Below, piece by piece: positions 1-56,200 of a stretch of 64,000 nucleotides of DNA. Each line of letters opens with the position of its first letter. The stretch's first letter is position 1. The stretch comes from Protoeuglena noctilucae. Lineage: Eukaryota. The position numbers and the translations under genes were made by a program. The notes below the pieces were generated by a model. The model searched no databases, was not told the origin of the DNA, and was given only the letters and a program-made list of their open reading frames with translations. The stretch spans positions 124,001 to 188,000 of the forward strand of contig OY253680.1 in the NCBI GenBank assembly GCA_958009085.1, given 5' to 3'.

Positions 1-3000
1 GCGGCCTGCGTGGGATTCGAACATTCGCAGATTTGAATGGGAATGGGTTGTAGATGGGAATGATGGCAAGTAATGTGAACGAAATGTGGGAGGGGTGAGA
101 GGGCGAGGGAGCTTGGATGGGTGAGAGTAGAGTAAAGAGAGCTTACAGAGTGGCTGGGCAATAGGTGATGGCGCACAGCGTGGTTGAGCAAGAGAGAGTA
201 GTCAGCAACTCAAATGCAGCTTGGCTGTCTTCCACAATGTCTCACCTGTGGCAGGTACACCCTCTGCGGCATCCAGTCCAGGGGGTCAGCGGCGCGGGCC
301 TGGGGGAGACGAGAGAGGGAGGCAAGCATTTCATATTAAGCAATTACATATGCTGATACTAGCACATGTCAGGTCATGCGATGCCACACACCGCCCTTGC
401 ATCACCAGCGACCACAGACACCCACACCCCCACCCCCACACCCACACTGCTACCCACCCCCACCCCAACACCCCCACCCACACCCACCCCCTCACCTTGA
501 CTGCCATGGCCAGCAGCGCCCCCTTGCTGCTCATGCGTGGGTTGTACAGCACCGTCAACACCCCCTCCTTGCGCCCCCCGTGACCCACGAGGATTTGATC
601 AATCTTGTCGTGCCACTCCAGGCCCACCACGCTCCCGGACAGGCCCAGCATGCGTTCCACCTCTCCCGTCTGCGGAACGGTGGGAGTGACTTTGATAGAG
701 AACGTAGTACTAGCATTGCAGTATCCAGTACTAGCATGGGGTGACGTCCTAGCGTGCAGTGACACACCACCAAGGTAGTCATGAACACCAGCTGCCCGTT
801 GTCCCCATCCCTCCCATCTCTCAGCATAACCATCACACCACTCTCACCTCCGCATTCAAAAACACCAGCTGCCCGTTGTCCCCGTCCCGTGCCGCGCTCG
901 TCCCCGTCGCCACCACTCTGTCCCCCGGCCCCAGCCTCACTGCCGTGTTCTCATGGGTATTTAAAAGACCCTCACGCACCCACACCGCCTTCTTCAGATT
1001 GCGCTGGTCCCTGCGAGCGTGGCAGTGTAGAGACGGGGGTTATAGAAGGGTCCTATAGGAAGGGTCACCCTTCTTCTCATTGTCGTGCTGGCGGTGCAAT
1101 AGGCGCCAGCCAGTATGCTCGCCATTGCTGCTCAGCGCTACCACTGCTCTGCACCTTCGCTACACCCCCAATCCCACCCCCACCCGCACCCCCCACCCCT
1201 CACCACCGCTATGCACGCACACCCCACAAGCACACCCCACATAACCCACCCCATCCTCACCCCATCCTCACCACCGTTACATCCCCCCCCCCATAAGCAC
1301 ACCCCTCCTCACCACCTCGCCACCGTCCCGTCCGTGCTCCTCGACACGAACCCCAGACCATCTCTGAAGAACTGCACCGAAGACACCGACTCCCCGTCCG
1401 CATGGGCAGACCGGAAGAGGTGCTTGGGTCTAGTCGCGTAGTTCCACTCCTGCCGGCCCTTGCCGAGGATGTCGGCGTTGGCGACTAACACCGTGCCCAC
1501 GGCCGCGCTGTAGCCGAACTTGCCGCGGACGTCGTAGAGGTGCACGGAGCCGTCCTTGAGGCCCGCGGCGATCTGTTGGGGGGGGGTGGGGGTGTGGTGG
1601 GGTGGTGGGGGGGGGGTGGGAGGTGGTGGGGTGGGTTGAACGGCGATGTGTGAGGGGTCTGGGTGGGGGTGAATGCATACGTGGATATACGCTCATCCCA
1701 CCCCACCGCCCCCACACCCATGTCCCCCCCCGTCCACCCCTCACCTGTGCCCCGTCGTTGCTGTATGCGCAAGTGGACACATGCACCCGCGTTCCCGGCC
1801 GCACGGGCTGTGGCTTGATGACGGTCGTCTGCTTGATCTCCCAGAGGTCCCAGGCACGCACGGTGCCGTCCTCGCTCGACGTGATGGCTGCGGGAATAGG
1901 GGGGGTGCATGCCGAAAAGGAATGTTGATAAGGAATGTACAAGTGAAGGTGGTGGATGATGGGTCACACTCTCTTATCCCGCTTATCCATCAATGCCGCC
2001 CCTCACCCTAAACATCTTCCATCAACCACCCATGCCCCAAACCCCTCTTCCCAACCCACTCACCCACACTGGTATGATCAATTAACCCTTCCCCCCCCCC
2101 CCCCCCCCCCTCACCCCCACCATCCACCACCCCCCTCACCCGTCCCCCGGTCGGTGGGGTGCCACTGCCCCCACGTGCACGCCGACACGTGACCCGTCGT
2201 GTTCCTCATGTCCCGGATGTACATGTAACCCCTCGGCAGCTCCCCCAGCTCGTGCCCCTCCCTGTCATACACGAACGGCTGCGGGCTGCCGTTCACCACC
2301 AAAAGGCACTCCCCCGCGGGACTCCAGGATAGGGCCAGGATGGGGTAGCTGCCCTCCTTCTTGGCGCCCGGCTCCATCATACTGCGTGAGGACATGGTAA
2401 TGTTATATTTATATGATGTGGTTGATAAGAGGAAGGTGACTGGTGCGCTCTCAGGCTCGCACGCTCCCAGCACAGGTGGGGGGCGACGACAAGCGACCCG
2501 CACCTCTCACCACCCCCCACAACTTCCCATTACCACCCACCAACACCCTCTCCGCCCGGTCACTCACCGGTAGCATTTCTTGGCCGACGTCATGCCGTTG
2601 AAGTCGTACATCCGAACCGTGTCGTCGAAGCCCCCCGTGGCAAAACGTGCTCCCTGGGGGTCCACGGCAAGGCACGATACGAGCCTGGCGTGGTGCTGCA
2701 CCGTCAGCTCGTGCGAGGCGGGGATGCCCAGGCGTTCGTCCACCCCGTCGTCCGCCCCTTCGCCAGCAACGCCGGGCTCAGCGTCCGCAGTCGGCGGGGC
2801 GGGAGGCCCTACGTCAGGTTCGCTGTCCTCCCCGTCCCCCGCGCCCGCGCTGTCCCGCTGGCCACCTGAAGAGGCGCCGTCCGCGTTACTTCGCGCGGCC
2901 GCTTCGCCCCCAGAGCTCCGCCGCGCGCCGGCTGCGGCCTCGCGACCCGACGACCCGCGGGGCACGTGCTGCGCCTCGCCCGGGCCCGCCGCGGCCGGAG

Positions 3001-3323
3001 CGGGCGCGCGCTTGGCGCCACCGAAGCTCCCAAATCCCATGATTGCAGCGACGTCCACGTCCGGGCCCGCGGAGGGCTCATCGGCGAAATCTTGCGGTTG
3101 CGCAGCCTTGGAAGGGCGCGGGACGTCGGCCCATCCGCCTTCTGCGTGCGGGTGGAAGGAATGACGTTGACTGACCAGGTTGCACACCGCTGTCGGACAA
3201 GAGAGCGTTGCCAGGCGTCAGGCTCGGTGAGAAAAGACGCGCGCTGCCCGACGCACCTGTCCGGGCCTTCTGATAGCCGTTCATGCGGCGCAGTTCCGCA
3301 AGCTCATCCTCGCTGTCGCTCAT
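1..3323 (-). CDS. WDR70: WD40-repeat protein, WDR70/gad-1-like (multi-exon, 3' end runs off the window)
   Basis: ATG at 3323 (MSDSEDELAELRR..). Spliced exons give IMGFGSFGG, LVSCLAVDPQGARFATGGFDDTVRMYDFNGM, GYMYIRDMRNTTGHVSACTWGQWHP, TSSEDGTVRAWDL, FVSRSTDGTV and LEWHDKIDQILVG, which match WDR70 family motifs as I recall them. GT-AG boundaries are visible; another exon starts at about position 5. Confidence 0.85.
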
Positions 3324-3911
3324 TGCAGCTGGACGCGCGAACCCAGCGGCGAGAGCCGCCTCAGAGGCTCCTTCCGCCCGGAGCTCTCCCAACCAGCGGC
3401 CCCTGAGCGACGGCGGTGAGAGAGAGGAGGATCGCGCGATCCGCGATGAAGAGGAGGCGAAATGTAACCCCGGGAGTTCCTCTCCCGTCAAACACAGCGA
3501 CGACGTGCGCCGCGAGAGGGCGTCGACTGGTATGCGCGTCTTTTGTGCACAGCCGGCTTGCTGGACACGCGCGCTGGCGATGGCGGCTACGTTCTTCATG
3601 TGCCTGCCCAGCCACCTCCGTGTCCCGCTTGAAGACGTAACGAGGAGCTCTGGCAAGGACGTCTGTCGTTTCGACAAGCGCTTGCTCTGCACCGTGGCCC
3701 CCGCGTGCCCCCGCGCCATACTCCTGCTAGTCCTGACAGTCCCCTCGCCTGAATCGCAGCTGCCCTGCCCAACCAAACATCCTTGCGCCGCACACTGCGC
3801 TCTTTCCGTGGCGTGCCCGCTCTAGCTGTTCACGCGCATCCCTCGCAGTTTTCGCGCAGTGCTATGTCGAGCATAGCAAGGGGCGTCGCCTGCGTGTCTT
3901 GAGGCGCAGGG

Positions 3912-7499: not shown

Positions 7500-8121
7500 T
7501 TGTGAGGGTTGCGGGGGACGTGCTGTGGGGTGGTGCGTGGGGGTGTGTGAGAGTGGGGGCCAGGGTTGGGCGGCGTGTGGGATGGGGCAGTTTTGTGCTT
7601 GCGGTAGTAGTGTTGGCATGAGAGGTCATTGGCATTGGCATTTGATATAAACGGCACCTTGGGTTCACAGGGCTCGTCGCGATGCTCTGCGAAAATGAGA
7701 CCAATTTATCAAGGGCAGCAGTGCTAACCAACCTTGGGTAGCAATACGCAACGTCGCATGCCGCCACTGATGCGCTCTGCATGCTTGCCAGACTCATCGC
7801 GTGTCAATGGCTGTGTCAACAATCATGACTGCGACAGTTGAGCGACGCAAGACACGGGAGGGTCAAGAGAGGGCCGCATGAGAGATGAAAGCGGCTCAAA
7901 GGGCGCTGGGGTGAAGGGACAGGGTTGCAGGGTCCGCTTTCACTGACGACACGCAACGCGGCGCAGCATGGGGGGATGGGAGGGGAGGGGTAAGGCCTGA
8001 CCAGACCTGTTGGGGTGTGGTCAAGCGCGCCAGTCACAAACCAGTGCTGAAGTGGGGCCCATCACGTGATCTCATCTGTTGAGCTCATGTGATAAGCCTG
8101 TCCCATCTCATGGACCCTCCC

Positions 8122-10057
8122 TTAAGCCACGACGGCCACGGGTCGCGTGATGCGGATGGTCGAGGTCAGTCGCGGCGCCAACTCCTCATACTGCAAGCAA
8201 AATGATTATGTTTATTATCGATGCTAATGCTAAGCAGGGTCGGTACTCACACCCATGCCGCATACCTCCCGCCCGCACCCCATCTCACTGAACCCAGCCC
8301 CTGTGCCCCTTCCACACGCATCCCCGCCCTGCTCTCCTCTCACCAGCGTCCATATTAGTGCCGTCTGCAGCGACCGCTTCACGAACCTCGGCCCCAGCCC
8401 CGCCATGAGGACCGAGACGCCCTTGGAGCTGAGCTTGCGCACGGCAGCCGCCGTCACGCTCTGCAAGCACGGTGGGACAGGGGGCAGTGGCTGGCAGGCT
8501 CTGTTGACACAGTGGCAAAGGTGGCAGTCGTGACACAGTGGGCACTCGCTCGCTTTGTCTCTCGACTGCCCCCTCATGACTGTGCATATGTGCACACCCC
8601 AGTCCAGCCACAGTGTCATCCGACAACGATACCGTCAATGATATCACCAATCACCTTACCGCTGGCCTTGGCAGCCTCGGCGCTCTGCAGCTGCACCAAT
8701 ACCCCACCTATCGATACAAGCCATCCATCACAAATGTTGTCATTCGTATCATTTCTTATGATCACCTTGCCGCTGGCTTTCGCAGCCTCGGCGCTCTGCA
8801 GCTGCACGAAGGTGCGTACGACGTCCATGGGTTGGGTGGCCAGCGTCGCGCCCACGCTGCCGATGAGACTCGACACCAGATTCGTGGCGATGCCCTCGCC
8901 CAGGCGCTGCCCCAAGGCCGCCTTGGCCTCGCTGCGGGCGCAGGGGCAGAGGGGAGGAGGCGTCAAGTGCTCGTCCCTCGACACACAGTGTCTACAACGA
9001 CACGTGCGACCTAAGCATCTGAGCCAGCTGCACGCCCCTTGCTGAGGCCGCAGATGCACATACCATTTGTATAACAGCATCGTCATCGAGCATCGTCATC
9101 GAGTCATCCGTACATCATCACCGTAGTCACCTGTATATCATGAAGTAGAGCCCGGAGTAGGGCGCGTTGGTGAGGACGGTGGGGACCAGGCCCCGGAACA
9201 GACCGCGCACGCCTTCCTGCTTCACGATGCAGGACAGCGCATGGAACGTGTTGGCGTATCCCTGCGCGTTGCCCGCCTCCATGCGCGTCTTGACTACCTG
9301 GGGATCCATCAAAGGGAGTGATATATATTTTGTTATATGCCATATATATATCACATATGAAACATCGTATGCGAGTCGAGCCGGCTTTCTGACGTCAACC
9401 AGTGTGAAGCTTCAGGGCACGTGCCTTGCGTGAGCACGCAAAGCGCTCACCGTGACCGGGGTCATCAGCGCCGTCGTGGATCCCCGCGAGAGGGCCCCCG
9501 CCGCCAGCGCGAACATTCCGCCGAGCCTGTCCGGGTCCCCGCCGGCCGCGACCTGCCTCCGCTGCAAGACGGGCTTGAGCGTTTCGAGCACGACAAAGTG
9601 GAACCCCGATCCGATGCCCAGCCGCAGGACCGTGGGCTGAGTGCCCGCCCAGAAGTGCAACACTCCGCGAAGACCTTTGTCGCCGCGCGCGATGGCCACG
9701 ACCGCCTCGCGCAGCGTCGCGGATCGCCCGTCAATCGCCAGCGTCTGCGCCTTGGTCCTGGGAAGCCGAGGGGCGGGGAAGGAGTCGCGACAGGCTGTTG
9801 ACGACCTCATTCATGTAATAAAGAATGTCGTGCGGAGCCAAGCGACTCGGCAGCGGGGCCGCGGACGCCACGTTGGCTGCTGCGAGTCTGCGTCACCTGA
9901 GCACGTCGAGGGGCTGCAGGAGGATGCCGCTGACCATGCCCGATATCGATCCCGAAAGCACGCTACTGAGCGTGGATATGACGGGCTTGATATCGGACGT
10001 GGACGCCCCGGGAGCCTGCGAAGCGAGGGAACTACCAAACGGCGGATTAGCGGCCAT
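8122..10057 (-). CDS. Mitochondrial carrier family protein, SLC25A38/Hem25 (glycine carrier)-like
   Basis: Three carrier repeats (QPLDVLR, TPVTVVKTRME, QPMDVVRT), plus GLFRGLVPTVLTNAPYSGLYF and AGLGPRFVKRSLQTALIWTLYEE. TAA at 8122-8124. The subfamily call is from remembered motif similarity. Confidence 0.85.
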
Positions 10058-13841: not shown

Positions 13842-15431
13842 TCAGCAGCCAGACGTCTCTCCCGCCTCGCAACGGACTATGTTGCACGAGAAATGCGACA
13901 GGCGGCCGTCGCTGGTGCAACACAGGCCGTACCCCCTGCAATCGGCGATCTGCACGTCCCGCACCTCCGCCCGACCGCCATCCCGGCAAAATACGCCGTC
14001 ACCCTCGACCGTCCGCGTGATACTCCCACCCTCCACCACCACCTTGCTGCCCCGGCTGAGACAAGAGACGCCACACTGCTGACAGCCGGCGACCTGCACA
14101 CCCCGCAGCTCCACCTGCCCGCCCTCAAGGCATATCACACCGTCACCGTCCTCGACGCCAATGATGCTGCCCCCCTGCACCACCATCTTGCTGCCCTGGC
14201 TGCCGCAGAAGACGCCCGATGCTTGGCAGCGTGCTATCTGCACGTCCCGCACCTCCGCCTGCCCGCCCTCTCCGCATTTCACGCCGGCGCTATCAAAGCC
14301 CTTGCACCCAGCGATGCTGCCCCCTTGCATGACCAGCTTGCTGCCGTGCCCGAGGCTGGCCACCCCACTCGTCTGGCAATCTACGATCTGCACGCCCCGC
14401 ACCTCGGCCTGCCCGTGATCCAAGCACATCACGCCACCGTCCTCGACAGTCCCGGTAATGATGCCACCCTCCACGATTGCCTTGCTACCCTGCCCGACCG
14501 TGACGACGCCGCACTTCTGACAGTCAGCAATCCGCACGTCTCGCACCTCTGCCTGCCCGCCATCCTCACAAGACACCCCCATACCGGTCCTCGACCCCGA
14601 GATGCTGCCCCCCTGAACCACCACGTTGGTGCCCTGCCCTCTGCTGACAACGCCAGACCTCTCGTAATCGGACATCTGCGCGCCCCGCAGCTCCACCTCG
14701 CCGTTCCCAGAGCACGCCACAGCGTCACCACCTATCCCCTTGACACTACCGCCCTCCATGACCACCTTGCTGCCCTGCCCGTGATTGGCCACGCCGCCCT
14801 TCCGGCAGTCCGCGATCTGCACGTCCCGCAGCTCCACCTGCCCACCCTCAATGCACCACATGCCTTGGCCCCCAGATCCCGCAATGCTGCCACTATGCAC
14901 GACCACCTTGCTGCCCCGCCCTTTGCTACCGATGCCGGACTTCGGCGCATCGACGATGTGTACATCGCTGAGCATGACCTTGCCACCCTCGCACTGCACG
15001 CCCATCCCCACCGCCGTCACTCCCTCCAACCTCAGCACCCCGCCCCTGTACGCTGCCAGGAAACACACACCCGCCCCTGGGTCATCTGACGCCGCCCGCA
15101 GCGTCCCGTTGCGCACGGTGGCCACCGCGCCCTCGCCCCGGACTACAAGCTTGCGTGACAGCACGATCTCGCGGCTCCCCAGGTCCACGACGCCCCCCTT
15201 GGCCATCGCCCGCGCCAGCTCCTGTCCGCTCAACACTTGCCTGCGAGCCGCAACAAATGGTACGTGGCTTTGCGTTAATAACAGCATGATCGGCCCTCGC
15301 TGTGGACGTCGGTGTGACATGACCCTCTCTGGACCTCAGTCTCACCGAGCCTCGCCCGTTCCTGTGCCTTCAGCTGTCCCAGCCGGATCCAACGCACGCA
15401 TCTCTGCGTCCATCCCGCTCCCGCCAGCCAT
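13842..15431 (-). CDS. Right-handed parallel beta-helix (pectin-lyase-like fold) repeat protein
   Basis: One long exon carries about 8 repeats of 46-50 aa (CxxGGQxExRxVQIxxCxxxGVxxxGxGSKxVxxGGSI). A short first exon (MAGGSGMDAEM..) is probable; the start is uncertain. Confidence 0.75.
13890..15000. repeat. Coding tandem repeat, unit about 138-150 bp
   Basis: Recurrent DNA blocks such as CGATCTGCACGTCCCGCACCTC and CACCACCTTGCTGCCC at about 141-144 bp spacing. Confidence 0.85.
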
Positions 15432-41557: not shown

Positions 41558-41763
41558 CGCCGCGTCGCCGTGTTCCAGGGGGAGCCGGGGTCCGATGGCT
41601 TTGCTCCTTGTATCTGCTAGCTTGACAGTTTACATTGGCATCCATTTTCCCACCATTCTTCTATTCCTCTTCGCCTGGGCATTGAAACCGGGCCCTCTTG
41701 CATGTAGGGTTTTCGAGCACCCCCTCCCTTTCATCGGGAAAACCCGGCGATTTGACGTCACTC

Positions 41764-41882
41764 GGATCAGAAGGATCGCGGGAATCACTGGATTCATCCC
41801 AGTGATCCCCGGGAATCGCCGGGATCATCCCCGTGATCCCGGCGATCCCCGCCACTGCCGCAGTGATCCCAGCGATCCCGGG
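41764..41882. repeat. Left subterminal repeat array (GATCCC / GGGATCA motifs)
   Basis: About 11 GATC-like cores, mostly about 9-10 bp apart, e.g. GGGATCATCCCCGTGATCCCGGCGATCCCC. Confidence 0.85.
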
Positions 41883-42423
41883 CCGCGGCCCTGATGCGCG
41901 TGCGCGCCCCCGCGTTTGCTCAGGGGGCTCGAGAGGAGGCGGAGAGACCGCACATTTGCTAGTTGGTGCTAATGACTGCCTCGGAGGCCCCTCTCGCGTC
42001 CTAAAGCTTGCTCCAGCATGCAGACGGGGGCCGTCGACGCATCCGGGGTCCGCTTCCCCTGCGCCGCCGCTGTTCAACGTGAGATGTCCATATCTATGCG
42101 ATGAGCGGGAGCTCGCGGGCTCGCCGGGCCCCCGGGGGCGCCGGGGAGGTCCCCGTGCTCGACCAGGCCTACCGCCGCCGCGGCCGCGATCGGGCACGCA
42201 GCGCTTGGCCTATGGATTGAGGTGACCTAAATCTCGCTAGCTGCGGCGCCTTTGCCGGCTACGCCGCACGGAGGTGGCTGCTGCATGGGAGGTGAGCCGT
42301 CCCCGCCGTCATGGCGCTGCGGATGGGGGCGCGGGGCTGGCTTCGGAGAATTATCTCGATACAGATGACATCGCCGGCGTCGGGGACCTGGCACCGCGAG
42401 CATCGGGGAGCTCCTGGGGTCAC

Positions 42424-45400
42424 CTACTCCTCGCCGCCGCTGGCGTGGTGCTCCCAGACCTGCTGCACGTGGCCGCAGTGAAGAAGCTTCCCAGCAACTT
42501 TCACGGCGTGAAGCTGCCGCCGAAGGTTGCGGAGGGGCACGCACTTCAGAGCCTCGCCCTCCGCAGGCTCCAGGAGCGACAGCTGGGGAGGCTGCAGCGC
42601 TCCCAGGTTGGTGTAGAACGACAAGCACTGGTTGGACAGGTACCTCAGGTCGCATGGGGCCCTGTGCACCGGGGCCACCAGGGCGCAGAGGAAGGTCCCG
42701 GCACCGGAGCTGGTCTTCGCCTCAACCCCGCACACGACCCTGCCCGTCTGCAGCGTGCCCCTGTCCGGGAGGTACTCGACGAAGGACAGGGTCTCGTCGG
42801 TGGCGACGATCCTGGCCCGGTCCCCGCTGGCCGTCCCGATCTCGACCGTGGAGGTCAGCGCGACCTCGCCCAAGACGTGGCAGGGAAGCCCCGCGCCCTT
42901 GAGGGCGTTCAGGAGGTCCGCCTTAGAAACGAAGTCTTCCGCGCGTCCCTCGCTGCACAGGTCGTTCTTCTTCAGGACGGTCTTCACGCCCTTCACTTGG
43001 TCCTCGGGCTGGGACGGGACCGGCTGCTCCGCCCTCGCCCGGCTCTTGATGACGGAGGCCGCCCTCTGAGAGATGACGCTGGTGCTCGCCTGCGACAGGG
43101 CTCGGGGGTCAGTCCAGCGCGGCTCAGCATGGCACGCGGGTCGAGCGCCGTGCGACCGCATCGAGACGTGTGAGTCGCAAGAAACGCGTCCTGCGTGGGC
43201 TTCCCCGCGTCGCCTACGCTGGGCGGCGCTTCTTGCCTGTACCTGCACGTCGCCCTTGCCGTTCGTGCGCGCGTTGGCAATGGGCTTGTGCATGCGCTCG
43301 GCGTCGTTCATGCTGCCCAACATGATGGAGCCGTTCCTCGCCACCACTGCAGGGAAATGCGAAAGCGCGTGGCACTTCTGGCTGTTCTCGATCTTGCTGA
43401 AGAGGGGCTTCTCCGTGCGGACGATTTCGTGGCCACGCAGCAGCGTCTTGAGCACGACCTGCGGCGACACGGCAGCGACAAGGCTTCCAGAGTGAGTAAG
43501 GGGCAGCGAACGATGGGGCTGGTGTTGGAGAAGGCCTCACGTGGAGGACCTTATTCAGCTGCGCGTCCGCCGCCTGCGCCCCTGCGATGGTGGCGCTCTC
43601 CAGGGACCATTCGGCATAGAGATGAAGGCATGCCAGGGCTACGGCCACGAGCCCAACCCTCTCGTCGTGCACGTCTTTGCTGCCCGTAGGCTCTGCAAGG
43701 GATGTGGTGGTGGGGAAACACTCCCGGGGTTCCCCGGCCCGCATCGCGATACCCGCAGCTCCTCCCGATGCCCTCGCAGCGCTGACTGTCGGCCTCGCCT
43801 CGAGAGAAGAGCTCGACGAGGGCGAAAGGCAGAGCTTGGATCAAGAACCTCGCCTCGTACGCCTTTATCTTCCCAAACGGGTCCACGAGGCTCAGCACGA
43901 TCTGGAAGGTCTCGCCCCACGGACGGGCGTGGATCCATGCCGGGGCCTGCGCTCCACCCACACGACGATGGACATGCCAGGTGAATACCGAGCAGCTGCG
44001 GCGCCACTGCAGGCAACGCACGCCATTGCCTGACCTGCAGCTCACCTTGGCATCCGCAATGATCGATGCGAACGCAGCCAAGAGGGCGTTTGCCTTTGTC
44101 GCAGACTCTCCCGCTGCCGCGTTGTTGTAGAGGACGGTCAGTATGCAGAAGGGAACAGTCTTGCCCAACATTCCCAGTTCCACGGTGTGCATGGGGTCAG
44201 GTGCTTGGCCCTGATACAAGTCCGACCCGAACTCGTCCCAGTACGACAGGGCAGGAACCACAGGATGAATTTTGCTCTCCCTGGCTTGTTCGTTGGCCCT
44301 GGCCGTCCCCACGTCCCTCCTCAAGCGCAGGATGTGCTGCACCTGGAGGCGATGCAGCGCGACGGTGCGAGGCGTGCGGCAGTCATCCTGGAGGCACAGC
44401 GGGCACGACCTGACGGCCAGCGTGGACGAGTTGGCCATCATGTCGTTCAGCTGCGCCGCCAAGACGGGAAAGACGATGACTCTCCCGACGTCGGGGAGGG
44501 TCATCCACACCCCACCGGACCTCGCCACGCCAATCAGCTGCCGGTCCACGGCAGCCAGCCGCCGCTGGATGGCCTCTCTGTTGTTCAGGTCTGCCTGTGA
44601 CCCCGGAGTGATCCCGGACACCTGCGGGGGCCTCGAGCGACAACTCATACACGCGGCGTGGTGGTGGACGTGTGGGCTGCAACGCCGGCAATCCTCCTCT
44701 CGCCTTCATGGACTCGACGGTGGCCACGGTTCGCGGCGTCCCTGTCCTCACGGCCTTGCAAGGCGACAGGAGGTGCATGTGGATGGGCGTCGTCGATGCG
44801 CCCTTGGTCATCTCCACCCCGTCGATGCTGTACGCGACGGGCACGAGGAGCAGCCGGGCGTGCAGCTCGGGGCGGACTTTGCCAGCGACAGCCTCGGCTA
44901 TGTCGCTATACCCCTTCGCCCGGGAGAAGGTGAGCTTCTCGTGGATGCTGGGATGCGTCTCATGTGGTCTCGCCCGCGCCTGGCGTGACCGTTCCCGTGC
45001 CTCGCTGAAGTCTCGCATCAACTTAACGAGCGTCTTGGGCTTGATCTGCTCCGCGTGCACCAGCATGTCCCTCAGCACCGTTATCGTTTGGTAGATGATG
45101 GTTGTGCTGCCCTCCTCTTGCAAAACCTGCAGGCCGTGCGTGCACTGGTTGGCGTCAGCCCCCTCGGCCGCGTCCGAGGCCCTCGACACAAGCGGCACCG
45201 CGGCGTGACGCACCTCGTACTGGCCATGGATGCTGTTGAGTGAGGTGTGGAACGTGCGGTGGGAGCGCCCGAGGTCGAGAAGGTCGTCGCGGATGTCGGG
45301 GCGCAGCTTCACGAAGCAATCGAAATGCGCTGCCGTCAGCGATGCCATGAACTGCGCCCCTGCTTCAAGTTGGCTCAGGTACTCATCGTCACTGTCCCTG

Positions 45401-45927
45401 CTCCTGGCCCGCCATGCCTCCAGGTCCTCCGGCAGCTTCAGCGGTTCGTACTCCCCGGGCGCAGGAAGGCAGGAGACTCCAGGAGCGTCCTCTTTGGGCG
45501 CATCATGCGCTCCGGCGCTCTCGGGCGGTTCACCCCTCTCCGAGTCAATGTCCACGTCTATGTCCACGTCCGTGTCGGCGTAGTGGAGCCACGCGAGTCC
45601 TACATCTTCGCTCTCGCCATCACTGCCCGCAGCAACGTCCGCCGTCCCGTCTTCCTCCCGCAGTTCTTGGTCTGGTCCCGCGCTGGCGCTGTCGCGTGCC
45701 AGCCCGTCCGAGCCTCGCAGAGACGGAGAGACATAGTGTTCGTGTGGGGCGGCGGGGCGGGGTGCTTCCTGGCGGCTCTCCTCGCCATATCTCCAGCCCC
45801 ACAGCGCAGGGCATCTTTGCTGATGCCGGGCGAGCTTGGCCGGGGTATCGAATTGCGTTCCACACGCGTCGCATTCGAGCATGGTGAGCTGCAGCGCAGG
45901 TTGCGATGCAGGGTTCAAGGCGGGCAT
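42424..45927 (-). CDS. Plavaka-type DDE transposase with N-terminal zinc finger (spliced)
   Basis: CDACGTQFDTPAKLARHQQRC; VAYSIDG; GRVIVFPVLAAQLNDMM..SCPLC; PDPMHTVELGMLG; QKCHALSHFP..NGS..NDAERMHK..RTNGK. The motif order matches Plavaka/CACTA transposases as I recall them. No stops were seen within the inferred exons. Confidence 0.78.
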
Positions 45928-47142
45928 GGTGAGGGCGTGGAAGCGGAGGTGAGGAAAGTCCAGCGCGCGCTCTGTGGGTCAGGCAGGCTCAGGGGTCGTC
46001 AGTCCTCCAGGCAAGCGGGGGTGGATTGCAGGGCTGCAGCGACAGCACCGCGCACAGGCGAGGCTCGGCGCTGCTGGTGCGAACAGCGCTGGATCATCGT
46101 CCCTCTCTAGGGTGAGAGTGCAGCCTGCTGCTGAGCCATCTGCGAGGTGTGCTGACGTGGCTGGGGAGGGGAGGGGCCAGCTCCCGTGAGGTGAGATGCA
46201 GCATACGCATGACTAGATCAGGTCGGACATTGTCGCTGTCCCCGAGGTGCGCGGTTGGTCTGCTGCGCTACCGGTGGGGTCTGCGACACGGTCAGGTGTG
46301 CAAGGGGGGGTTGGTTGGCTGGGAGGGACGAAGGGCTGGTCCGCCAGCGTGGTATCTCTGTACTTGCTGACTGTACCTGGCACCGTGCCTGCACTCTCTC
46401 ACCCCGAGACTGACTCTAACTTCGCCTAACAAGCACGCAGGCGCACGTGCCACCTCGTCCCAAGTTCCGGCGCTGGTCGGGTGCTGGCCGGGCCCGCCAT
46501 GGCTCGTCCGCCGACCCATGCCCCTTGTCTGTCGTCTGGCGTCCGCGGCGCCCCGCAGCGGTGGTCATCGACTCCTGGGGCGGCCGTCGGCACGGCGGAG
46601 TCGCGCACGCCACCATCTCCCGAGTGCCTGGCCCGAGTGCCGGAGCGCCGCTCCCCGATGGAGCGGCAGCGTCCGGAACAAGCGGTCGGTGCCTCTGGCG
46701 GTGGTCGCTGCGCGCTCCCGTCGCGCCTGCGGCCGCCCGAGTCCGGCTGCATGTGCGTGCATGAGTGCGTTGCCTAGAGCGTCACGGATGGTCATGTAAC
46801 CTCGGCGTAGGGATTGAAATACCAATAGCTACGCTAGGGAGCGATTACGGGCCGAACGGAGCCCCCCGGGCCGCGCGGGCCCCGGAGCGCGCGTGCCCAA
46901 AAGATGCGTCCGATCGCGATCAAGATAGGTCTGATCGCGGCCGAGAAGGAAGATAGGCGGCGGGATAGCCTCGGCTAACGCTTCCGGCGCCGCTGCGCTC
47001 CCGAGTGGGCCCCGCTCCCCGCGATCCCCGACCACGACGAAATGCCACGAAACTGCTCCCAGCGGCCTCTCGCATCCCGGGTGCGCCGTGGCCGTAACCG
47101 CGCCGCGTAAAACGGCCTCCCCAGGGAGATCGGGCGCGCGGC

Positions 47143-47273
47143 TGGAATCACTGGGCTCAATGAGGGTTTACATTACAGTCTGTGTCGTCAGTGGGATCAC
47201 TGGGATGATCCCTCTGATACCCCGGGATCAGCGGGATGATCCCCACGATTCCTGGGTATCACGGGGATGATCC
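47143..47273. repeat. Right subterminal repeat array (inverse of the left array)
   Basis: GGGATCACTGGGATGATCCC, GGGATCAGCGGGATGATCCC and GGGTATCACGGGGATGATCC are near reverse complements of the left-array unit. Confidence 0.85.
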
Positions 47274-47452
47274 TACTGACGCCAGACTCGCGGTTTTCCC
47301 GATGTTGAATCCTTCGCTGGTCAAGGCGGCCGATGCATCGAGCTTTCGCGTCTGGAGACGGCAGCGCCTGCCATCGCTTGCCATCGCGGGCCCTCGTCGC
47401 TTCCCCGCGTTCCTGAGGGCGCCTTGCGCGACGCCGGCCGTCGCCGCCGACG

Positions 47453-50009
47453 ATGGCGGACGTGGAGGGGCCCCTTGAGGGCAGGGATGTGGGCATGGGC
47501 GTGACGGGGCACCTGTACTACCCGCACGACCCCCAGGCCTACCTCCAGTTCAGCTTCCACCCCAATGCGCCCTTCACGGGCAGCGCTCTCAAGTGGCGCT
47601 CTTACGTCTACGACGACGGCACCACGTGAGTGACGCTGCGGCCCCCGCGCTGCCCGAGAGGCCGAGGGGGAGGGTCGAGCCGGGCGGCGACCGATGCGAT
47701 GGCACGTTGCTGCGTGCGCCGCGCATCTGTTTGCTGATTGGTCTTTCGGGGACCTGGGTTCGCTCGCCGCGGACGTCCAGCAGCCCCGGGATGCGGTCGG
47801 CCACCACTATCCGTTCCCGGTCGCGGGCGGGGGGTCCCGGGGCCCCCGCCGCGCCCCTCGATAGCGCGAGGGTATCGGTTGTCCCTCATAGCCCGCGTAT
47901 ATGCGCCCCGTCCCTCATATGTCATCGGGAAGCGCCGAAAGAAGCGCAGGGGGCCTGCCCGCGTGGCGCGTGGCCCCCCGCGAAGAAAGCGCGCGAGAAC
48001 GTCCCGCGCCCGAGCGCTTTCCGCCTTGCGCACGCATCAATCGCGCGCTCGGCCTCCCGCGCGGTCGCCACACGCCCGCCCCGCCTGCGTCGCCCGCAGC
48101 TACGAGGGCCTGATGAAGGACGAGATTCCGCACGGCCGGGGCGTGATGACGGTCGGGAAAGGCGAGCTTGGCGCCGGGGGCCTCGCGGACCAGAAGTACG
48201 GCGACCGCTACGAGGGCGAGTTCATGGCGGGGTTCGCGATGGGCATGGGTCAGTACACGGCGGGGGATGGGACGCTCTATCGCGGCGAGTTCATGTTTGG
48301 CAAGAAGGACGGCTGCGGCGTGCTCTCGGACCTCTCGCCCTTCTACAAGAGGCTCTCCAAAGGGGTCGACCCGCAGGTGGGCGGCGACTGGGGCTGTGTG
48401 TTGCGCGGTACACTGTACGGTGCATGGGGCTGGTGCAGGCCCAGTTGCCAAGACCTTGGCCTGGACGCAGCGGGTGCTGGAGAAGTACGCGTATGGTATG
48501 AAATACATGAAATATTACCTGGTTTCTTACATAATCCGCACGATCCGCAGAAGGCGTGGAAGGCGTCTCAGGAGGAGATTGAGAAGGGGAGCGTCTACGG
48601 TACTTGGATTAAGGACTCATATGTGGGCGGACCCGACGAGTCCGGTCAGCTGTGCCACATGGAGGAGATCAAGGGGACCCTTGAGGAGGTGGAGGAGGTG
48701 GTGGCGAGGGCCAGGATGTTCAAATGGAAGCCGGACGGCGACGTCGGCCCCTGGCTCATGCGCGACGGCGGGGAGGTGCCCGCCCAGATGCAGCAGCACC
48801 CGCTGCACTACCCCTTCAACACGGGCTTCCTGATGCCCGGACCAGCCGGGAACGCCTTCGCGATCCCTGACGACGCGTCCCTGAGGAGGGAGATGGCGAC
48901 GGCCGCACAGAACCATTTGAACATCTTCCGGAGCAAGAACCTGCAGAAGGATCCGGAGCCGGGGTCCGTCCAGGCGAGTCGAGGGCGGGGGTTGGGGGGG
49001 GAGGTGTGTTAGCAGGGTGGTAGTGCAGGGTGGGGTGTTAGTGCGGTGCGGGGTTCAGTGCGGCATTGACTGTGGCTGTGGTATAGTACATGTGGTCAGT
49101 TCGATGCAATCCACTTTCGCACCAAACCGTGCTGTGCTTACCACCCCCTTTCCAGGACAAGGCCGACAAGCTGTGGGCCAAGGAGCTGAAGAAGATCGAG
49201 GACGAGAAGAAGAGGCGGGCGGAGATCGAGCGGCGGCGCATCCGGCAGATGGAGATCGCAAAGGGATTGGAGGCGACGGGTAGCAAGGGTGGCGAGGGGG
49301 CGGCTAAGACGGGTAGCAAGGGTGGTGAGGGGGCGGCTAAGACCGGGAAGGGATCCGGGAAGGCTGGGGGCAAGAGCGGAGGCGGGTCGGATGCGGGCGG
49401 GGAGGGGCAGCGGGTGGCGGGGAAGGGTGCAGGGGCGAAGGGCGGTGCTTCGGGTGCGGGTAGCAAGGGTGCGGGTGGCAAGGGGCAGGGCGCGCAGCCC
49501 GGGGCGCGAAAGCCGGGGAGTCAGGACGCGCCGGGGGGCAAGCGGCCTCAGGTGGTGTCCGACAGCGATGACGAGGTGCGTGGGGTGGTGTGTGCGTGGG
49601 GGTTGTTGTGGTGTGTGGGGTGCTTGGTGCAGCGTGGTGTATGCGGCTTGTAATGGTGGTAAATGTTGATGTTAAATCACACGTTCCATTCACCTCTCCT
49701 CACCTCCACTCACCTCCCCCTTCCCCGTTGCAGGACAGCTCCGGCTCTGACTACGATGAGGACGACCTGGTGGCATCCGTCCCAATGGAAAGCGAAAATG
49801 ACGATACCAACTCGATTAATAATATCAATGGCCAGTCGCAGCACGGTGCCGGGGTGCACGGCGGGCGTGGGAGCGGGTTCGGGGGCGGGAGTGCGTTTGG
49901 GTCTGTGACGCTGGGGCTGAGCCGGGCGGTGCGGGCGACCCACCGGGCCTGGGAGAGGATGGCCAAGCGGGCGCAGCGCATGCCGAAGTGGGGGCAGGCG
50001 AAGCACTGA
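47453..50009 (+). CDS. TIC100: MORN-repeat chloroplast translocon component, TIC100-like
   Basis: YVYDDGTT|YEGLMKDEIPHGRGVM, RYEGEFMAGFAMGMGQY, YRGEFMFGKKDGCG (MORN), then VARARMFKWKPDG..QHPLHY..LMPG, resembling the TIC100 conserved block. A Gly/Lys-rich tail follows. Confidence 0.72.
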
Positions 50010-50201
50010 GGGGGATCGCATAGCTGCTCTCTGCTTTTACAAATGCTGCTCGAGATTGAAAGTTGCCTAAAAGTTCAAACAATTCGGCACACATGCAAGA
50101 AGTCACTGCTAGTGAGGCCCTTTCACTCAACACCCCTCATAGCGCCACCGGCACCCTTGCCGCCACCCCAACTGCCACCCTCGTCGCCACCCCCACCCCC
50201 C

Positions 50202-53200
50202 TCACGCCGCCATGGCCGTCATCGTTGCGATCTTCTGATCCACCGCAGCAATCTTCTCCTCCAAGACGGCCAGCTGCTGCCGCACCTCCCCCACCACGTC
50301 CGCCGGGGCCTTATCCACGAACTGCAGAAAGGTAGAAGTGAGAGGTTGACAAGCTGCGCCAGTCCACAAACTGCAAATCATGCAGCCCGCTCTTGTCAAT
50401 TGCTAGTAACTGGCAATCAACGACATCACTACCCCATCCCATGCCTCATCCGTTCCTCGCCTTGGGGTTCCCCAGCCTCGCCCTCAGCCCCTCGGCCTCC
50501 CCAGTCGCTATTCTTAATATGACTATCACCCATCACCAATCATAGTGCTATTGATACTCGCCTTGGTATTCTTCAGCCTGGCCCTCAGCCCCTCCACTCC
50601 CCATCGCCACTCCCATTTACCATTTACTATCTCCATCACCAACCCCAGTCACATCGATAGTACTACTCGCCTTGGGATTCTTCAGCCTCGCCCTCAGTCC
50701 CTCGGCCTCCTTGTCGATCTTCGCCCGCTGCCCTTTCAGTCTTTCGATTTCCTTAGCTGCATCAAACAGACCTGCCATGGGCAGGGAGACCTCCACACCC
50801 GGCATCACCACCAGCTGCACGGCGGCGTTGCTCTGAGGGAGAAGAGGGGTGTTGGGGTTGGGGTGATGGGGCGTGGGTGAGGCTAGGGGTGAGTGAGAGA
50901 GCTGGGGCAAGAGGTGGTGCATGAGTGTCGCTAATGGAGTGACTTGCAACCCTCACTCTCTTAAACCCTTTAAAACCCCTCACCACCACCCCACCCACCC
51001 CTCACCTGCCCCCCCGCCCCCTCACCTGCCCCAACCCCCCTCCCCACCACCCTCGTCCCCTCCCCAACCACATACCCCTCACCCTCACCACCCCACCCAT
51101 CACCCCCACCCCTCACCTGCCCCCCCGCCCCCTCCCCCACCACCCTTGTCCCCTCTTCCTCCAACTTGCACAGCAGCGCCACCAGGCCCATCTCCCGCTC
51201 CACCTCCCCCCGCAGCGCGGCGTCCTCGATGCAAATGGTGGCCGGGATGCGCCTTCCCAGCTCGACGTTGTACTCGGCTCTGGCGTTCCGCACCGACCGC
51301 ACGATGGCTTGGAGGGCGGCGTAGGAAGACTCGGCATCGGGGTCCCTGCGATGGGAAGGGGGGTGAATGGGTGTTGAATAGTAATGTTGTTGTATTTATC
51401 TTTATAATTACTTATACCATAATTCTTACCATAATAATGATAATCATAACAATACTCAACACACATATCACCACCTCCTCTCCGCAATTACCTGGGCAGG
51501 TCGTCCCTGGGCCACGGCTGCACCGTCAAACTGACCCCTTCTATGCGTGGCAATGCCAACCACAGCTCCTCGGTTACAAATGGCATCAGCGGGTGCAGCA
51601 ATCGGAGGAGCAGCTCGTAGCAGTATAGGGAGGTCTCGAGAGCAGCGGCCTTGCGGGCGGGGTCGCCTGGAGATGGGGGGGGTTGGGGAGGGGTGGAAGA
51701 GGGGGTGGTGTAAGGGGTGATGGGGGTGAGGGATGTGGGGTGGTTGAGGGGGGTGGGGTTGTGAGAGGGGTGTTGGGTGTGGTGGGAGGCAATGGGAGGC
51801 GGTGGTTGATATGCACAAGTAATATTGACGATCATATGGTGACGGCAAATAACACCACCGCGATATGCATTTATTGCTATTATACTAGCTATATTAATAA
51901 TAACAACAATCATTGCCCATTCTCTCACCCGAGTAGATGCGGTCCTTGGCGCTCTCGATGTACCAGTCGGCGAACTCTGACCAGAAGAAGTCATACAATA
52001 CCCTCCCAGCCTCTGCCATTTCCAGCTTGTCCAGAAGCGCAGTGACCCGCGACGCCACGGCATGTGTCTGGGACACCACCCAGCGCTCGGCCAGGGGGAG
52101 CTGGGAACGGGAAGGAGAAGGTACTACTGTTAATGATGATAGTAAAGTAATTGATATTGATATTGATAGTGATAGTGATAGTGATAGTGATATTGATATT
52201 GATATTGATATTGATAGTGATAGTGATAGTGATAGTGATAGTGATAGTGATAGTGATAGTGATAGTGATAGTGATATACCCCTCTCTCACCTCCCCCATC
52301 CTCTCCGGCACCGTCGCCGCCCTCTCCGCCATCTCCGCCACCTCGTCATCGGTCGAATCTTTCAGAGAGAATTCGAGGAACTTGCCCGCGTTCCACACCT
52401 TGTTGGTGAAGTTGCGGTTGGCAAGCACACGATCTAGGCTGAGGTTCAGGTCCTGGCCCACGGCCGTGCCGGTGGCAAGGGTGAACCTGGGGGGGAAGGG
52501 GGGTTGAGAGGGGGCGATTTACCAAAATTTGCATAATAACTATGATATTACTAATTACAATAATGTTCATTTCTATAAAAAAATTATCACAATTCATATT
52601 GAAATTTAAATACATTACCGTCAATATTCGACAACATCATAAACTATATAAGTATAAGTCCATAATCACTCACCTGCGAGCGTCGCATCCGTACTCGGCG
52701 ATGGTGTCCACCGGGTCCACGACGATGTCCAGCGACATGAGCAATATCTAGCTATAATTACACACATATATATAAACACTACTCACCTGAGAGCGTCGCA
52801 TCCGTACTCGGCAATGGTGTCCACCGGGTCCACCACGTTGCCCAGGGACTTGGACATCTTGCGACCCTTCTCGTCCCGCACTAGGCCATGCAGGAAGACG
52901 GTCTGGAAGGGGGGTTGGCCCGTGAACTGCGGGGGTGAGGGGTGGGGGTTGGGGTGAGGGTGGCAGTGGGGGTGGTGTTAAGGGTGGGGGTGGGGGTGGG
53001 GGTGAGGGTGGCAATGGTGAGAGTAACAGTCATCGCCACCCCTCACCTCAATGCCCATCATCATCACCACCCATTATAATCCATTATCCATCATCATTAC
53101 CCACGACCATCCCTCACCTCGATGCCCATCATGATCATCCTCGCCACCCAGAAGAAAAGGATGTCGTGGCCCGTCTCCAACACTGCATGGACAACACGGA

Positions 53201-56200
53201 TAGTAACATAGTAAGACCCTAACCCTAGAAAGGAGACAGAATAATACAGCTCATGTCACATCACATCACAGCTCATCTCACCCGTAGTCGGATAGTACTT
53301 TTTCAAATCCCCCGCCCCCTCCCCCGGCCACCCCAGGGTGCTAAAGGGCCACAGACCGGAGGAAAACCACGTGTCCAACACGTCAGGATCCTGTGTCAGA
53401 ATCACGCCGGGGCCGTGGCGGGCGCGGGCGAGCGACTCGGCCTCGGCTTGGGTGCGGGCGACGACGTAGGTGGAGGTGCTGGGGTGAGGGGAGAGGGGGT
53501 GGGGTGTTATGGGGTTGGTGTGTGGTGGTGGTGGTGATGGTGTAACCCTCGCTAACCCTTCCCATACACCAACCCCCCCTCACCGCCCCTCGTTCGCCTC
53601 CAATACACCGCACACAAACCTCCACCGCCATATACACCCCACCCCCATATACACCACCCTTACTCACCGCCCCTCGTTGGCCTCCCATGCCGCGTCCCCA
53701 TCACTCGCTACCCCACACTCTATAACCATTCTACAACCCAACCCCCCCTCCATACACCACCCCCCCTCACCGCCCCTCGTTGGCCTCCAGCGCCGCATCT
53801 GCCGCCTCCTTTGACTCGTGCACGTACCACACGGGGATGCGGTGTCCCCACCAGACCTGCCTCGAGATGCACCAGTCGCGGATGTTCTCCAGCCAGCCGT
53901 TGTAGATGCCCACGAAGCGCTGCGGGGGGTGAGTGGGGGGATGGGGGTGGGAGAGTAATTGCACACACAGACACACCCACACAATTACACCCGCACCCAC
54001 ACACACCACCCTACGCTCCCGTCCCGCACCTCACATCACTCACCCGCATCCACACCCACACCCACCCACCCACCCACCACTCACCTCCGGCAGTATCGTG
54101 ATGCTCCCGTCCCGCACCGCCCCCAGCGCCGGCTCCGCCAGCGGCTGCATTCTGACGAACCACTGCTCTGACACCATCGGCTCGACGATCTCGCCCCCGC
54201 GCTGGGAGCGGGGGACGCGGGTGACGTAGTCTTCCACTTTGATCACCAGGCCCTCCTTCTGTGGGTGGGAGGCGGGAGGGGTGATATGAGAGATGCGTAA
54301 GCAATGTGACGTAGTCCTGTACCTTGATAACCAGTCCCTCTTTCTGTGGGTGGGAGGTGAGGGGCCAGAGGGGTGACATGGGAGGGGTGACACGTTATCT
54401 ACTCTTACCACCAGGCCCTCCTGTGGGTGTGCCTGTGTATGTGTGGTGACACAGTGTGATATCAACACATGGATGCTTTGGTACGTACTGTGTAACGCGC
54501 GCCATGGCCATCGCCTCACCTCCATGTCTGCCCACAGCGCCTCCCTTGCTTTGAATCGGTCCAGGCCGGCGTACCTGCGACGATATACATGGGTAAGTGT
54601 GTTCATAAGTGAGTGGTTACTTGAGAAACGCCCCTCCACTGCAACACACAACAGCACTCGACACCCACCGCTCCACCCTTCACAACAACACGCACCTCCC
54701 CTCCGCCCCACCACCACTACATCCCCCCTTTACCCGCACCGCCCTGCCACCCTCACAACAACATCACCGCTCCACCCACTCCACCCTGCCACCCAACCGC
54801 ACCACCCCCTCATCCCTCACCTCCCCTCCACCCCTCAACGACAACAACCCCCCTCATCCGATCCCTCACCTCCCCGCCGCCTCGTTCATCGACCCGTCCC
54901 GGTTCATGATGCTGATGATGGGCAGGTCCAGGCGCTTGCCGATCTCCCAGTCATTCGGATCGTGGCCGGGGGTGATCTTCAAAGCGCCTGTCCCGAACTG
55001 CAAGCGATGAGCGATGGGGGTGGAGTGAGTGATGGAAGGGGGAGGGAGTGGTCATCAGAGCACCCGTCCTAAATTGCACACAATGGCACATCACATCTCG
55101 GCATCGGTGCAGCACAGAACAGCACAGCACGATTGCAGTGACACACAGCCATGACCACAGCATTACTCACCTCCATGTCCACGTACTCGTCCGCCACGAT
55201 GGGCACCGTGCGCCCGCCGGACATGGGCACCACGCACTCCTTGCCCACCAAGTGACGGTAGCGCTGCGGGGGAGACAGTGTGTAGTGTGCAGGTTGTGTC
55301 ATGTAGTGTGCCCTACCCCGTCGCCCACCCATCACCGTTCAACTGAGCTAGCTGTAAAAACCACCACAGCCACTAGCCCCTGTCTCCACCAACTAGCCCC
55401 TCGCCCACCCCACCCACGCCCTCTCACCTCGTCGTTGGGGTTGACCGCCACCGCGGTGTCTCCGAGGATGGTCTCGGGGCGCGTGGTGGCCACGGGGAGG
55501 AAGTCGCTGCCGCCGGCGACGGGGTACTTGAAGAAATAAAGCTTGCCTTTCTCCTCCGAGAAGTCCACCTCTGCGGATGGCCAACGACGGCGCAGTGGTA
55601 TTGCATTGCAATGGCGAGGGGACACGAGTCATGGATTGGCGCCGCGACGCGACCGGGCGACCTGGCTGGAGCACCAAGAGTTGCAAATAGCTCCATACAT
55701 GCAAAACGCCACACGCGCACCGATGTCGGAGACGGCCGTCTGCAGCGCGGGCGACCAGTTGACCATGTAGGCCCCGCGGTAGATGAGGCCCTTGTCGTGG
55801 AGCCGGACGAAGGCCTCCGCGACGCCCCGGCTGAGGTCCTCGTCCAGCGTGAAGCGCTCGCGGCTCCAGTCGCATGACGCGCCCAAGCGGCGAAGCTGCG
55901 ACAAGACGGCAGCGAACGTGATGCCCGCTGCAGCCTCGCGAAGCGCGGAAAGCAAGCAGCGCTACGCATGGAACAAGGTTGACACAACATGCTTCCATCG
56001 CGAACCTGCATCGTGATGAAGCCGCCGTACTCGCGCTTCCACTCCCACACTCGATCCACAAAGGCCTCGCGGCCCATTGCGAGCCGAGAGACGCCTTCCT
56101 TGGCCAGCATCTTCTCCACGACCATCTGCGGTCGGAACGGGTCACTGCGGTTATTGTTCGCACCTCAACCCGCGCCCGCCGGCCCCTGCTGTGGAGAGCC

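Follow-up and report, generated by a model that had tools for sequence, protein, structure and literature searches.

Introns in a 64-kb window of Protoeuglena noctilucae lengthen by copying their own borders while the original splice site stays in use

The DNA analysed here is a stretch of 64,000 nucleotides from Protoeuglena noctilucae (assembly GCA_958009085.1, contig OY253680.1, positions 124,001 to 188,000 of the forward strand), called the window below, and all coordinates are positions within it. The window has a G+C content of about 64% and short introns are abundant. Two of its genes were identified from exon translations as valyl-tRNA synthetase (ValRS) and the spliceosomal helicase BRR2, with green algae as top matches, and these two are considered here along with a WD40-repeat gene, a mitochondrial-carrier gene, a GATA-finger gene and an ABC1-kinase gene. 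No Rfam family was matched within the window. A first-pass annotation had proposed that introns in these six genes contain copies of the adjoining exon end or start, usually with the splice site included. We call such a copy an echo and the exon-adjacent original its source. All 19 of the echo positions it proposed were recovered at the same place or within a few bases, one of them (29500) marginally, and about 8 further echoes were found (four donor-side and four acceptor-side). As it had described, the copies range from identical to barely recognisable. About one third of the introns examined hold a decayed copy of an exon end including its splice signal. Public sequencing runs containing 99% of the words sampled from 48000-57000 include one from a culture-labelled organism, and marine metagenomes and metatranscriptomes contain smaller shares of these words.

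Direct repeats 25-400 nt apart were located with a diagonal scan (match +1, mismatch -2, low-complexity segments excluded). The scan returned 34, 29, 22 and 15 non-simple segments at scores of at least 16, 18, 20 and 25, respectively. Eight composition-preserving shuffles within 50-nt blocks gave 1, 0, 0, 0, 0, 0, 0 and 0 segments at a score of at least 16 and none at 20 or above, and a chance origin was rejected on this comparison (34 segments versus 0-1 per shuffle). Three weaker pairs (25450, 29500 and 39863) were evaluated by local alignment against 300 shuffles. Several of the stronger proposed pairs also came out of a separate repeat finder, as seven repeat families (D8, D12, D14, D15, D18, D19 and D20). 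Of the weaker ones, the pair 25440-25472/25588-25620 scored 21 against a shuffle maximum of 13.5, the pair 39822-39850/39864-39892 scored 19 against 13.5, and the pair 29467-29534/29551-29617 was marginal at 16.5 against 15.5. The arrays were also compared with an independent culture-labelled run (X1), whose contigs are identical to the window, with no gaps, over 47277-52141, 53019-53964 and 54089-57400. The arrays in these intervals are therefore not an artefact of the present assembly, and an assembly artefact was rejected as unlikely since the same echoes are present in the X1 contigs. A minor X1 contig (depth 6.6 versus about 50) carries 28 other letters in place of 51015-51106, the 92 nt that separate the two copies of the 50994 pair. 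An echo site may thus vary in length here, but the evidence is too weak for use.

The repeats are concentrated at exon-intron junctions. Thirteen of the 34 segments are coding repeats of 141-150 nt in a single beta-helix protein gene at 13.9-14.8 kb. This gene (minus strand, 13943-14900) encodes a right-handed beta-helix protein (Pfam Beta_helix, E = 5e-24) with at least six of these repeats. Among the other 21 non-simple segments, 19 lie in arrays that start at an exon-intron junction, distributed over 15 introns of the six genes, and two lie away from junctions, namely tandems of 31 nt at 47193 and of 33 nt at 49275 (49275-49343, 2.1 copies at 97% identity).

Junction association was also measured intron by intron. 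Splice-aware refinement gave 27 annotated introns (17 in ValRS, at 50.3-56.3 kb, and 10 in BRR2, at 23.2-31.8 kb), and an extended set of 40 introns added 13 predicted in the WD40 and GATA genes. Donor probes consisting of the last 70 nt of the exon and 12 nt of the intron were aligned to their own intron and to 26 control introns. The own intron scored above all 26 controls for 10 of 27 donor probes (V6, V9, V11, V12, V16, V17, B4 and B6, with B1 and B3 marginal) and for 4 of 27 acceptor probes (V7 strongly; V5, V11 and B8 weakly). Echoes in reverse complement were 0 clear and 2 marginal among 54 reverse-complement probes. Across the 40 introns, a score of at least 17 was reached by a donor echo in 13 and an acceptor echo in 6, against a control rate of 71 in 3120 probe-intron tests, and at a score of at least 25 there were 11 donor echoes and 1 acceptor echo. 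The strong echoes are all in genes of the minus strand, and tests of 10 plus-strand introns gave no positive. We make no claim of strand bias because plus-strand introns are few and the plus-strand ABC1 gene has one pair.

To place the echoes relative to the splice sites in use we drew on RNA joints, protein homology and gene prediction. The RNA evidence consists of contigs assembled from three metatranscriptome runs over one 20-kb stretch. Minus-strand joints in ValRS were 50321>50671, 51344>51491, 51665>51928, 52484>52785, 53478>53771, 54258>54520, 54572>54868 and 54997>55171, and the joints listed (15 of 38) use exon-adjacent sites only and no echo site. A metatranscriptome contig from the same species encodes a 649-residue protein, which maps to ValRS in ungapped blocks at 95-100% identity that end at the source copies, with the echoes appearing as additional weaker blocks. 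The echoes in BRR2 are intronic by protein homology. The zinc finger of the GATA gene is encoded in two parts, one in an exon with its end at 18174 and the other in an exon that begins near 17864, and only the outer sites join them into a continuous finger. This identifies the 18168 copy as the genuine end of the exon and puts the 18078 copy inside the intron. Intron assignment in the WD40, carrier and ABC1 genes used Pfam extent, splice consensus, reading-frame logic and an ab initio intron finder, which placed 15 of 26 training introns exactly, made false plus-strand calls within minus-strand introns and served as a rough guide only. Wherever RNA or homology can tell, the outer, exon-adjacent site is the one spliced. 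For ValRS, the RNA joints listed and the transcript protein show that a single copy of the duplicated splice site is used and the coding sequence is unchanged; to judge from homology or frame, the same probably holds for the other genes. Repeat scans, RNA joints and homology together uphold the proposal that junctions are duplicated at the DNA level with the copies lying inside the intron.

The copies share a common anatomy. On the coding strand a donor echo comprises exon end (18-63 nt), the donor and another 5-20 nt of intron, and an acceptor echo block comprises the branch, pyrimidine and AG region followed by 20-40 nt from the start of the next exon. Echoes sit 40-215 nt into the same intron and in direct orientation, with offsets of 42-210 nt that are mostly 71-156 nt (8 of the 16 listed are divisible by three, which is uninformative). 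The duplicated blocks are variable in length (23-69 nt) and three pairs are perfect (18078, 20314 and 50994). Junction segments have thus been duplicated in the DNA directly, near the source and repeatedly, and each case comprises duplicate segments within one gene with one copy lying over an exon-intron boundary, as in junction-spanning internal duplication. Each echo carries one splice site and 18-63 nt of exon only, which sets it apart from tandem exon duplication with mutually exclusive splicing. Donor echoes begin in mid-intron (start positions 13-159 in introns of 178-403 nt) and keep their own GT and consensus, which is not the arrangement of AGGT-type intron gain, where an intron from the GT of one copy to the AG of the other would place the echo against the 3' splice site and be as long as the duplication. 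Exon-echo mismatches showed no consistent pattern by codon position between pairs. All 4 mismatches of the carrier pair (8650-8807) fall on one codon position, which fits synonymous change in the exon, or chance.

What lies between echo and source differs between two-copy pairs and three-copy arrays. For all 9 of the 9 two-copy pairs examined, the 40-95-nt spacer was unlike both flanks (the exon on one side and what follows the echo on the other), and the two-copy pairs are therefore block-spacer-block structures rather than head-to-tail duplications. Spacers are 33-95 nt long, often AT- or GT-rich, with 25-50% GC. A BLAST search of the window with 16 spacers gave only simple matches rich in C or G and, in the 50994 case, one further piece derived from the exon; no spacer had another copy. 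In the three-copy arrays (ValRS introns at 50.3-50.7, 53.5-53.8 and 54.3-54.5 kb) similarity extends over nearly the whole 80-109-nt unit, and identity is mosaic, one echo being nearer the exon in its 5' half and the other in its 3' half. Simple tandem duplication of a whole unit therefore describes the three-copy arrays only. The first-pass annotation had spoken of an ongoing process of tandem duplication. The tandem part held for the three-copy arrays and not for the two-copy pairs tested; the three perfect pairs fit an ongoing process, but recent gene conversion could equally explain them given the patchy and mosaic identity. An example of patchiness is the 784 pair, in which a 28-nt block at 96% identity adjoins largely decayed exon-derived bases.

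Table. Echoes and their sources by gene and intron. Paired values ("41.0 vs 12.0") are the probe score in the intron and the control maximum; "new" marks echoes absent from the first-pass annotation.
Gene and intron	Echo	Source	Strand	Details
WD40-repeat, predicted intron 670-847	784-811	861-888	-	27/28, 77 nt away; then the other 13 exon nt and donor in decayed form; donor probe 28.5 vs 16.0
Mitochondrial carrier	8650-8696	8761-8807	-	exon end and donor; 94%; offset 111 nt; spacer 64 nt, 39% GC; Pfam Mito_carr match stops at source
GATA-finger, 17865-18173	18078-18120	18168-18210	-	donor echo; perfect 43/43; 47-nt spacer is a 23-nt tandem repeat, itself diverged
GATA-finger, 17865-18173	18039-18065, about 17919-17961		-	acceptor-side; copies of next exon's start; new
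GATA-finger	19194-19236	19287-19329	-	exon end; 88%; offset 93 nt; echo donor decayed; new
GATA-finger	19850-19887	19946-19983	-	exon end and donor; 84%; offset 96 nt
GATA-finger, 20157-20442	20314-20348	20434-20468	-	perfect 35/35; offset 120 nt; additional internal repeat 20280-20305
BRR2, 24334-24611	24373-24414		-	acceptor-side, acceptor and next exon start; weak; 21.0 vs 16.5; new
BRR2, 25280-25574 (GC-AG)	25440-25472	25588-25620	-	source in exon; offset 148 nt
BRR2, 26115-26517	26342-26402	26498-26558	-	exon end and donor; 87%; offset 156 nt; 41.0 vs 12.0
BRR2, 29176-29583 (GC-AG)	29504-29534, 29414-29444	about 29590-29617	-	source is exon end; old, marginal; echoes 90 nt apart, 29414-29444 new
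ABC1 kinase	39864-39892	39822-39850	+	exon end and GT; offset 42 nt; only plus-strand case
ValRS, 50322-50670 (GC-AG, RNA-supported)	50555-50594, 50456-50500	50665-50703	-	three-unit array; period 101-109 nt; mosaic identity
ValRS, 50833-51116	50994-51023	51105-51134	-	perfect 30/30; then 18-nt insertion and 21-nt copy 51042-51062 matching 51135-51155
ValRS, 52487-52786 (RNA-supported)	52668-52736	52781-52849	-	63 nt exon and GTGAGT within AT-rich intron sequence; 91%; offset 113 nt; 58.0 vs 14.0
ValRS, 52927-53117	53036-53066	53107-53137	-	exon end and donor; 90%; offset 71 nt; new
ValRS, 53479-53770 (RNA-supported)	53649-53685, 53572-53602	53752-53788	-	three-unit array
ValRS, 54259-54519 (RNA-supported)	54306-54364, 54398-54422	54221-54279	-	acceptor-side tandem array; period 80-85 nt; source is acceptor with about 21 nt intron and 38 nt exon; 39.5 vs 13.5
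ValRS, 54575-54869	54812-54842		-	donor echo, short; exon end and donor; 19.5 vs 16.5; new
ValRS, 54998-55170	55044-55085		-	acceptor-side, acceptor and 30 nt of next exon; old, 31/42; AG lost; 18.0 vs 14.0; new

The GATA intron 17865-18173 shows how far copying can go. Its donor echo is followed directly by two acceptor-side units, and most of the 309-nt intron therefore derives from its own borders. ValRS intron 52487-52786 is very AT-rich in a window of 64% G+C and embeds its GC-rich exon echo, and the next ValRS intron (52152-52276) carries a (TGATAG)n microsatellite of about 21 units. Away from the echoes, a segment at 41749-47306 has a depth of about 1200-2100x in X1 versus about 28-60x in its flanks, with loose ends at both borders. 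Four GT-AG joints show plus-strand splicing of this segment, which is highly covered in RNA runs and has one 31-nt tandem repeat family near both ends (41779-41840 and 47192-47273). It had no Pfam match in 15 frames of at least 125 residues and no Rfam match, and joining the exons of the 41.7-47.3 kb segment did not produce a convincing reading frame. The segment is probably an element of about 5.6 kb that is present in many copies and may be mobile.

Echo-bearing introns are longer than the others, with a median of 286 nt (n=17) versus 192 nt (n=23; one-sided Mann-Whitney p=0.019), in line with the earlier suggestion that the process expands introns. The suggestion that it creates decoy splice sites also held, as 8 of 13 echo donors are within about 1 bit of the real donor. 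For 11 of the 13, a stop is reached before the echo donor in every stop-free candidate frame of the upstream exon. Some echo signals have been lost, namely the 19194 donor and the AG in 2 of 6 acceptor echoes. The 27 annotated introns are polar on the coding strand, the 5' third having 46% G and 10% C and the 3' third 43% C and 15% G, and G- or C-rich arrays of short period fill them. There is an excess of GTGAG-like motifs in sense orientation (AGGTGAG was observed 10 times against 0.7 expected), and CTCAC motifs, which are branch-point-like, are enriched toward the 3' end. Three of the 27 are GC-AG introns with the donor GCGAGT (50322-50670, 29176-29583 and 25280-25574), and all three have donor echoes, one of them marginal, in which the GC is kept.

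These introns lengthen by copying their own borders, with the original splice site still in use. The explanation we favour, with a probability of roughly 0.55, is local duplication of DNA anchored at the junction, arising through break repair or template switching and tolerated because the outer site is still spliced; its trigger is something we infer. The first step would be break repair or replication template switching within the low-complexity intron ends, which are G-rich with GGTGAG-like motifs on the 5' side and C-rich with CTCAC-like motifs on the 3' side. A broken or stalled end could use microhomology to pair wrongly with the outermost motif (the true splice site), copy outward into unique exon sequence and rejoin, leaving block, spacer and block. 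Unequal exchange or slippage between blocks, a later step that is partly visible in the data, would then generate tandem arrays of two to three units with a period of 70-160 nt, and short-patch gene conversion with the selected exon copy may keep parts of the blocks very similar. Such copies would persist through splicing at the outer site, which the RNA establishes for the ValRS introns it covers and which would apply equally to the others. As the outer site is still used, the copy becomes intron sequence and the intron lengthens. Use of an echo donor would nearly always lead to an in-frame stop. Mispairing of this kind would account for the block-spacer-block structure, for block ends just past the splice consensus and for the short range, and echoes would be visible only when unique exon sequence was carried along. 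The excess of donor echoes may reflect selection, since transcription reaches an acceptor echo ahead of the true site but a donor echo only once the true site has been passed.

Several points weigh against this explanation. The study is limited to a single 64-kb window, and the exon maps of 4 of the 6 genes are predicted. To explain the donor bias, one has to assume that whichever site is transcribed first prevails. As no alleles with and without an echo were seen, the first step, the boundaries and the age of the events are conjectural; among 80 metagenome loci matched with the ValRS protein there was no intron-bearing orthologue, all 80 being contiguous, 49-66% identical and bacterial or transcript-like. 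No inverted copies were seen, though break repair of this type usually yields them. The spacers at 18078, 8650, 52668 and 53036 are AT- or GT-rich without G-runs, and a trigger in G-runs is therefore not general. Echoes were found for 1 of 9 donors lacking a GTGAG or GCGAG core and for 12 of 31 with it, a hand count that is not significant. The perfect blocks, too, could be old duplications that conversion has recently made identical rather than fresh events.

A stronger form of the idea, which we hold only tentatively and consider doubtful, is that the process is triggered at splice junctions or recognises them, through transcription, splicing or the sharp composition switch at the 5' splice site, that it is a main route of intron lengthening in this lineage, and that it is tolerated because the spliceosome strictly prefers the outermost site to decoys of equal strength. 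Under such a process some introns would be almost wholly border echoes, as the GATA intron 17865-18173 appears to be.

Among alternatives to junction-anchored copying through repair, the one that survives best is ordinary tandem duplication of a whole 70-160-nt unit over the junction, in which the intron part decays quickly, being low-complexity sequence prone to indels, and the exon block is kept similar by selection on the exon copy and short-patch conversion of the echo. We regard this as unlikely, although it fits the arrays. The ValRS acceptor array (period 80-85) and the three-copy donor arrays are similar over nearly the whole unit, mosaic and patchy identity suggests conversion, the block ends match the limit of constraint (exon plus splice consensus), and the mismatches of the carrier pair gather on a single codon position. 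However, the perfect blocks of 43, 35 and 30 nt stop abruptly with dissimilar flanks, and the 52668 block is 91% identical yet its spacer aligns to the flank at the shuffle median. The 23-nt duplication in the 18078 spacer is 15% diverged while the blocks around it are identical. Conversion should also have preserved intergenic duplicates, and none was seen in the window scan.

It is less probable again that the echoes are decoys selected for function, recruiting U1 or exon-end factors that aid the true site, above all where it is a weak GC donor, or acting as regulated unproductive sites. This would suit the mostly intact echo donors, 8 of 13 as strong as the real donor, the premature stop expected if one were used, and the presence of echoes in 3 of 3 GC-AG introns among the 27 annotated, one marginal. 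It sits poorly with the divergence of the exon-derived parts at every codon position in most pairs, with the decayed 19194 donor and the loss of AG in a third (2/6) of acceptor echoes, and with the spread of echoes over unrelated housekeeping genes with no common motif beyond the splice consensus. The joints listed (15 of 38) also showed outer sites only.

An RNA-mediated origin, in which junction-spanning fragments of pre-mRNA are reverse-transcribed or serve as repair template and are inserted nearby, is improbable to a further degree. The restriction of echoes to sense orientation and to transcribed junctions is what it would predict, and donor and acceptor echoes lie side by side in the GATA intron, resembling a miniature of exon end, short intron and exon start. 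Those abutting echoes differ in identity (100% versus about 81%) and so look like separate events; no poly(A), reverse-transcriptase gene or dispersed copies were seen in the window, and copies are always at most 215 nt from the source. A mobile intron family (introners or miniature transposons) with echoes as target-site duplications was rejected as highly improbable: direct repeats do flank an inserted spacer and marine green algae are known hosts of introner-type elements, but the spacers have nothing in common, among themselves or with other parts of the window, except simple runs rich in C or G, cross-intron control alignments are near background, no near-identical element copies occur within the 64 kb, no terminal inverted repeats were found (no search of the spacers was aimed at them), and the repeats are long and variable (23-69 nt), much longer than transposase duplications.

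The growth, movement and origin of introns have largely been inferred from rare old events, and here many events of varied age lie within a small region. If the pattern is genome-wide, it would provide a natural series for the mutational mechanism, readable from strain differences, and a natural test of splice-site choice in which strong decoys lie downstream and the real donor alone appears in the joints listed (15 of 38). It is also a warning for gene predictors, as a simple intron finder settled on the echo donor for two or more of the ValRS introns.

Searches of the open full-text literature, which did not extend to subscription journals, brought up no account of introns that pervasively carry copies of their flanking exon ends. 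Junction-spanning internal duplications and intron gain by tandem duplication are established ideas. Gao and Lynch reportedly described internal gene duplications over exon-intron boundaries in PNAS in 2009. As in these systems, a short intragenic duplication doubles a splice site, one copy works and the extra sequence is spliced out. Unlike them, where events are sporadic, existing junctions have here been copied into existing introns, in about one third of introns, and the copies are mostly donor-side and usually block-spacer-block. In the tandem route to intron gain, as outlined in a review, an exonic AGGT segment is duplicated and a new intron is created (PMC3443670). In a human gene, a 403-bp duplication of an exon-intron junction mostly yields aberrant transcripts that carry premature stops, and it causes disease (PMC9052919). 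There too the exon end, donor and intron start were copied in tandem within the intron; in the alga, however, equally strong decoy donors lie 71-187 nt downstream and the RNA joints listed (15 of 38) use the outer site only. Double-strand-break repair is reported to yield small duplications and templated insertions through patch-mediated or staggered breaks, polymerase-theta end joining and Pol alpha-primase fill-in (PMC8355091, PMC7165422, PMC5728401 and PMC12153051). The echoes resemble such insertions, which reportedly are bounded by microhomology, in being direct copies at short range (within about 100-200 nt of the break) and in the building of arrays by repeated events. Typical templated inserts are shorter, and inverted copies, not seen among the echoes, occur among them; anchoring at junctions is not among their described features. 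Introner elements of marine algae are said to have been reported by Huff et al. in 2016, and Gozashti et al. in 2022 reportedly placed marine green algae among the hosts of introner-type elements. Introners share with the echoes a marine algal host, the addition of sequence to genes as intron and a splice site taken from duplicated host sequence. They differ in being dispersed, near-identical families that make short target duplications and new introns, whereas the window shows long duplications, with no shared element, added to introns that already existed.

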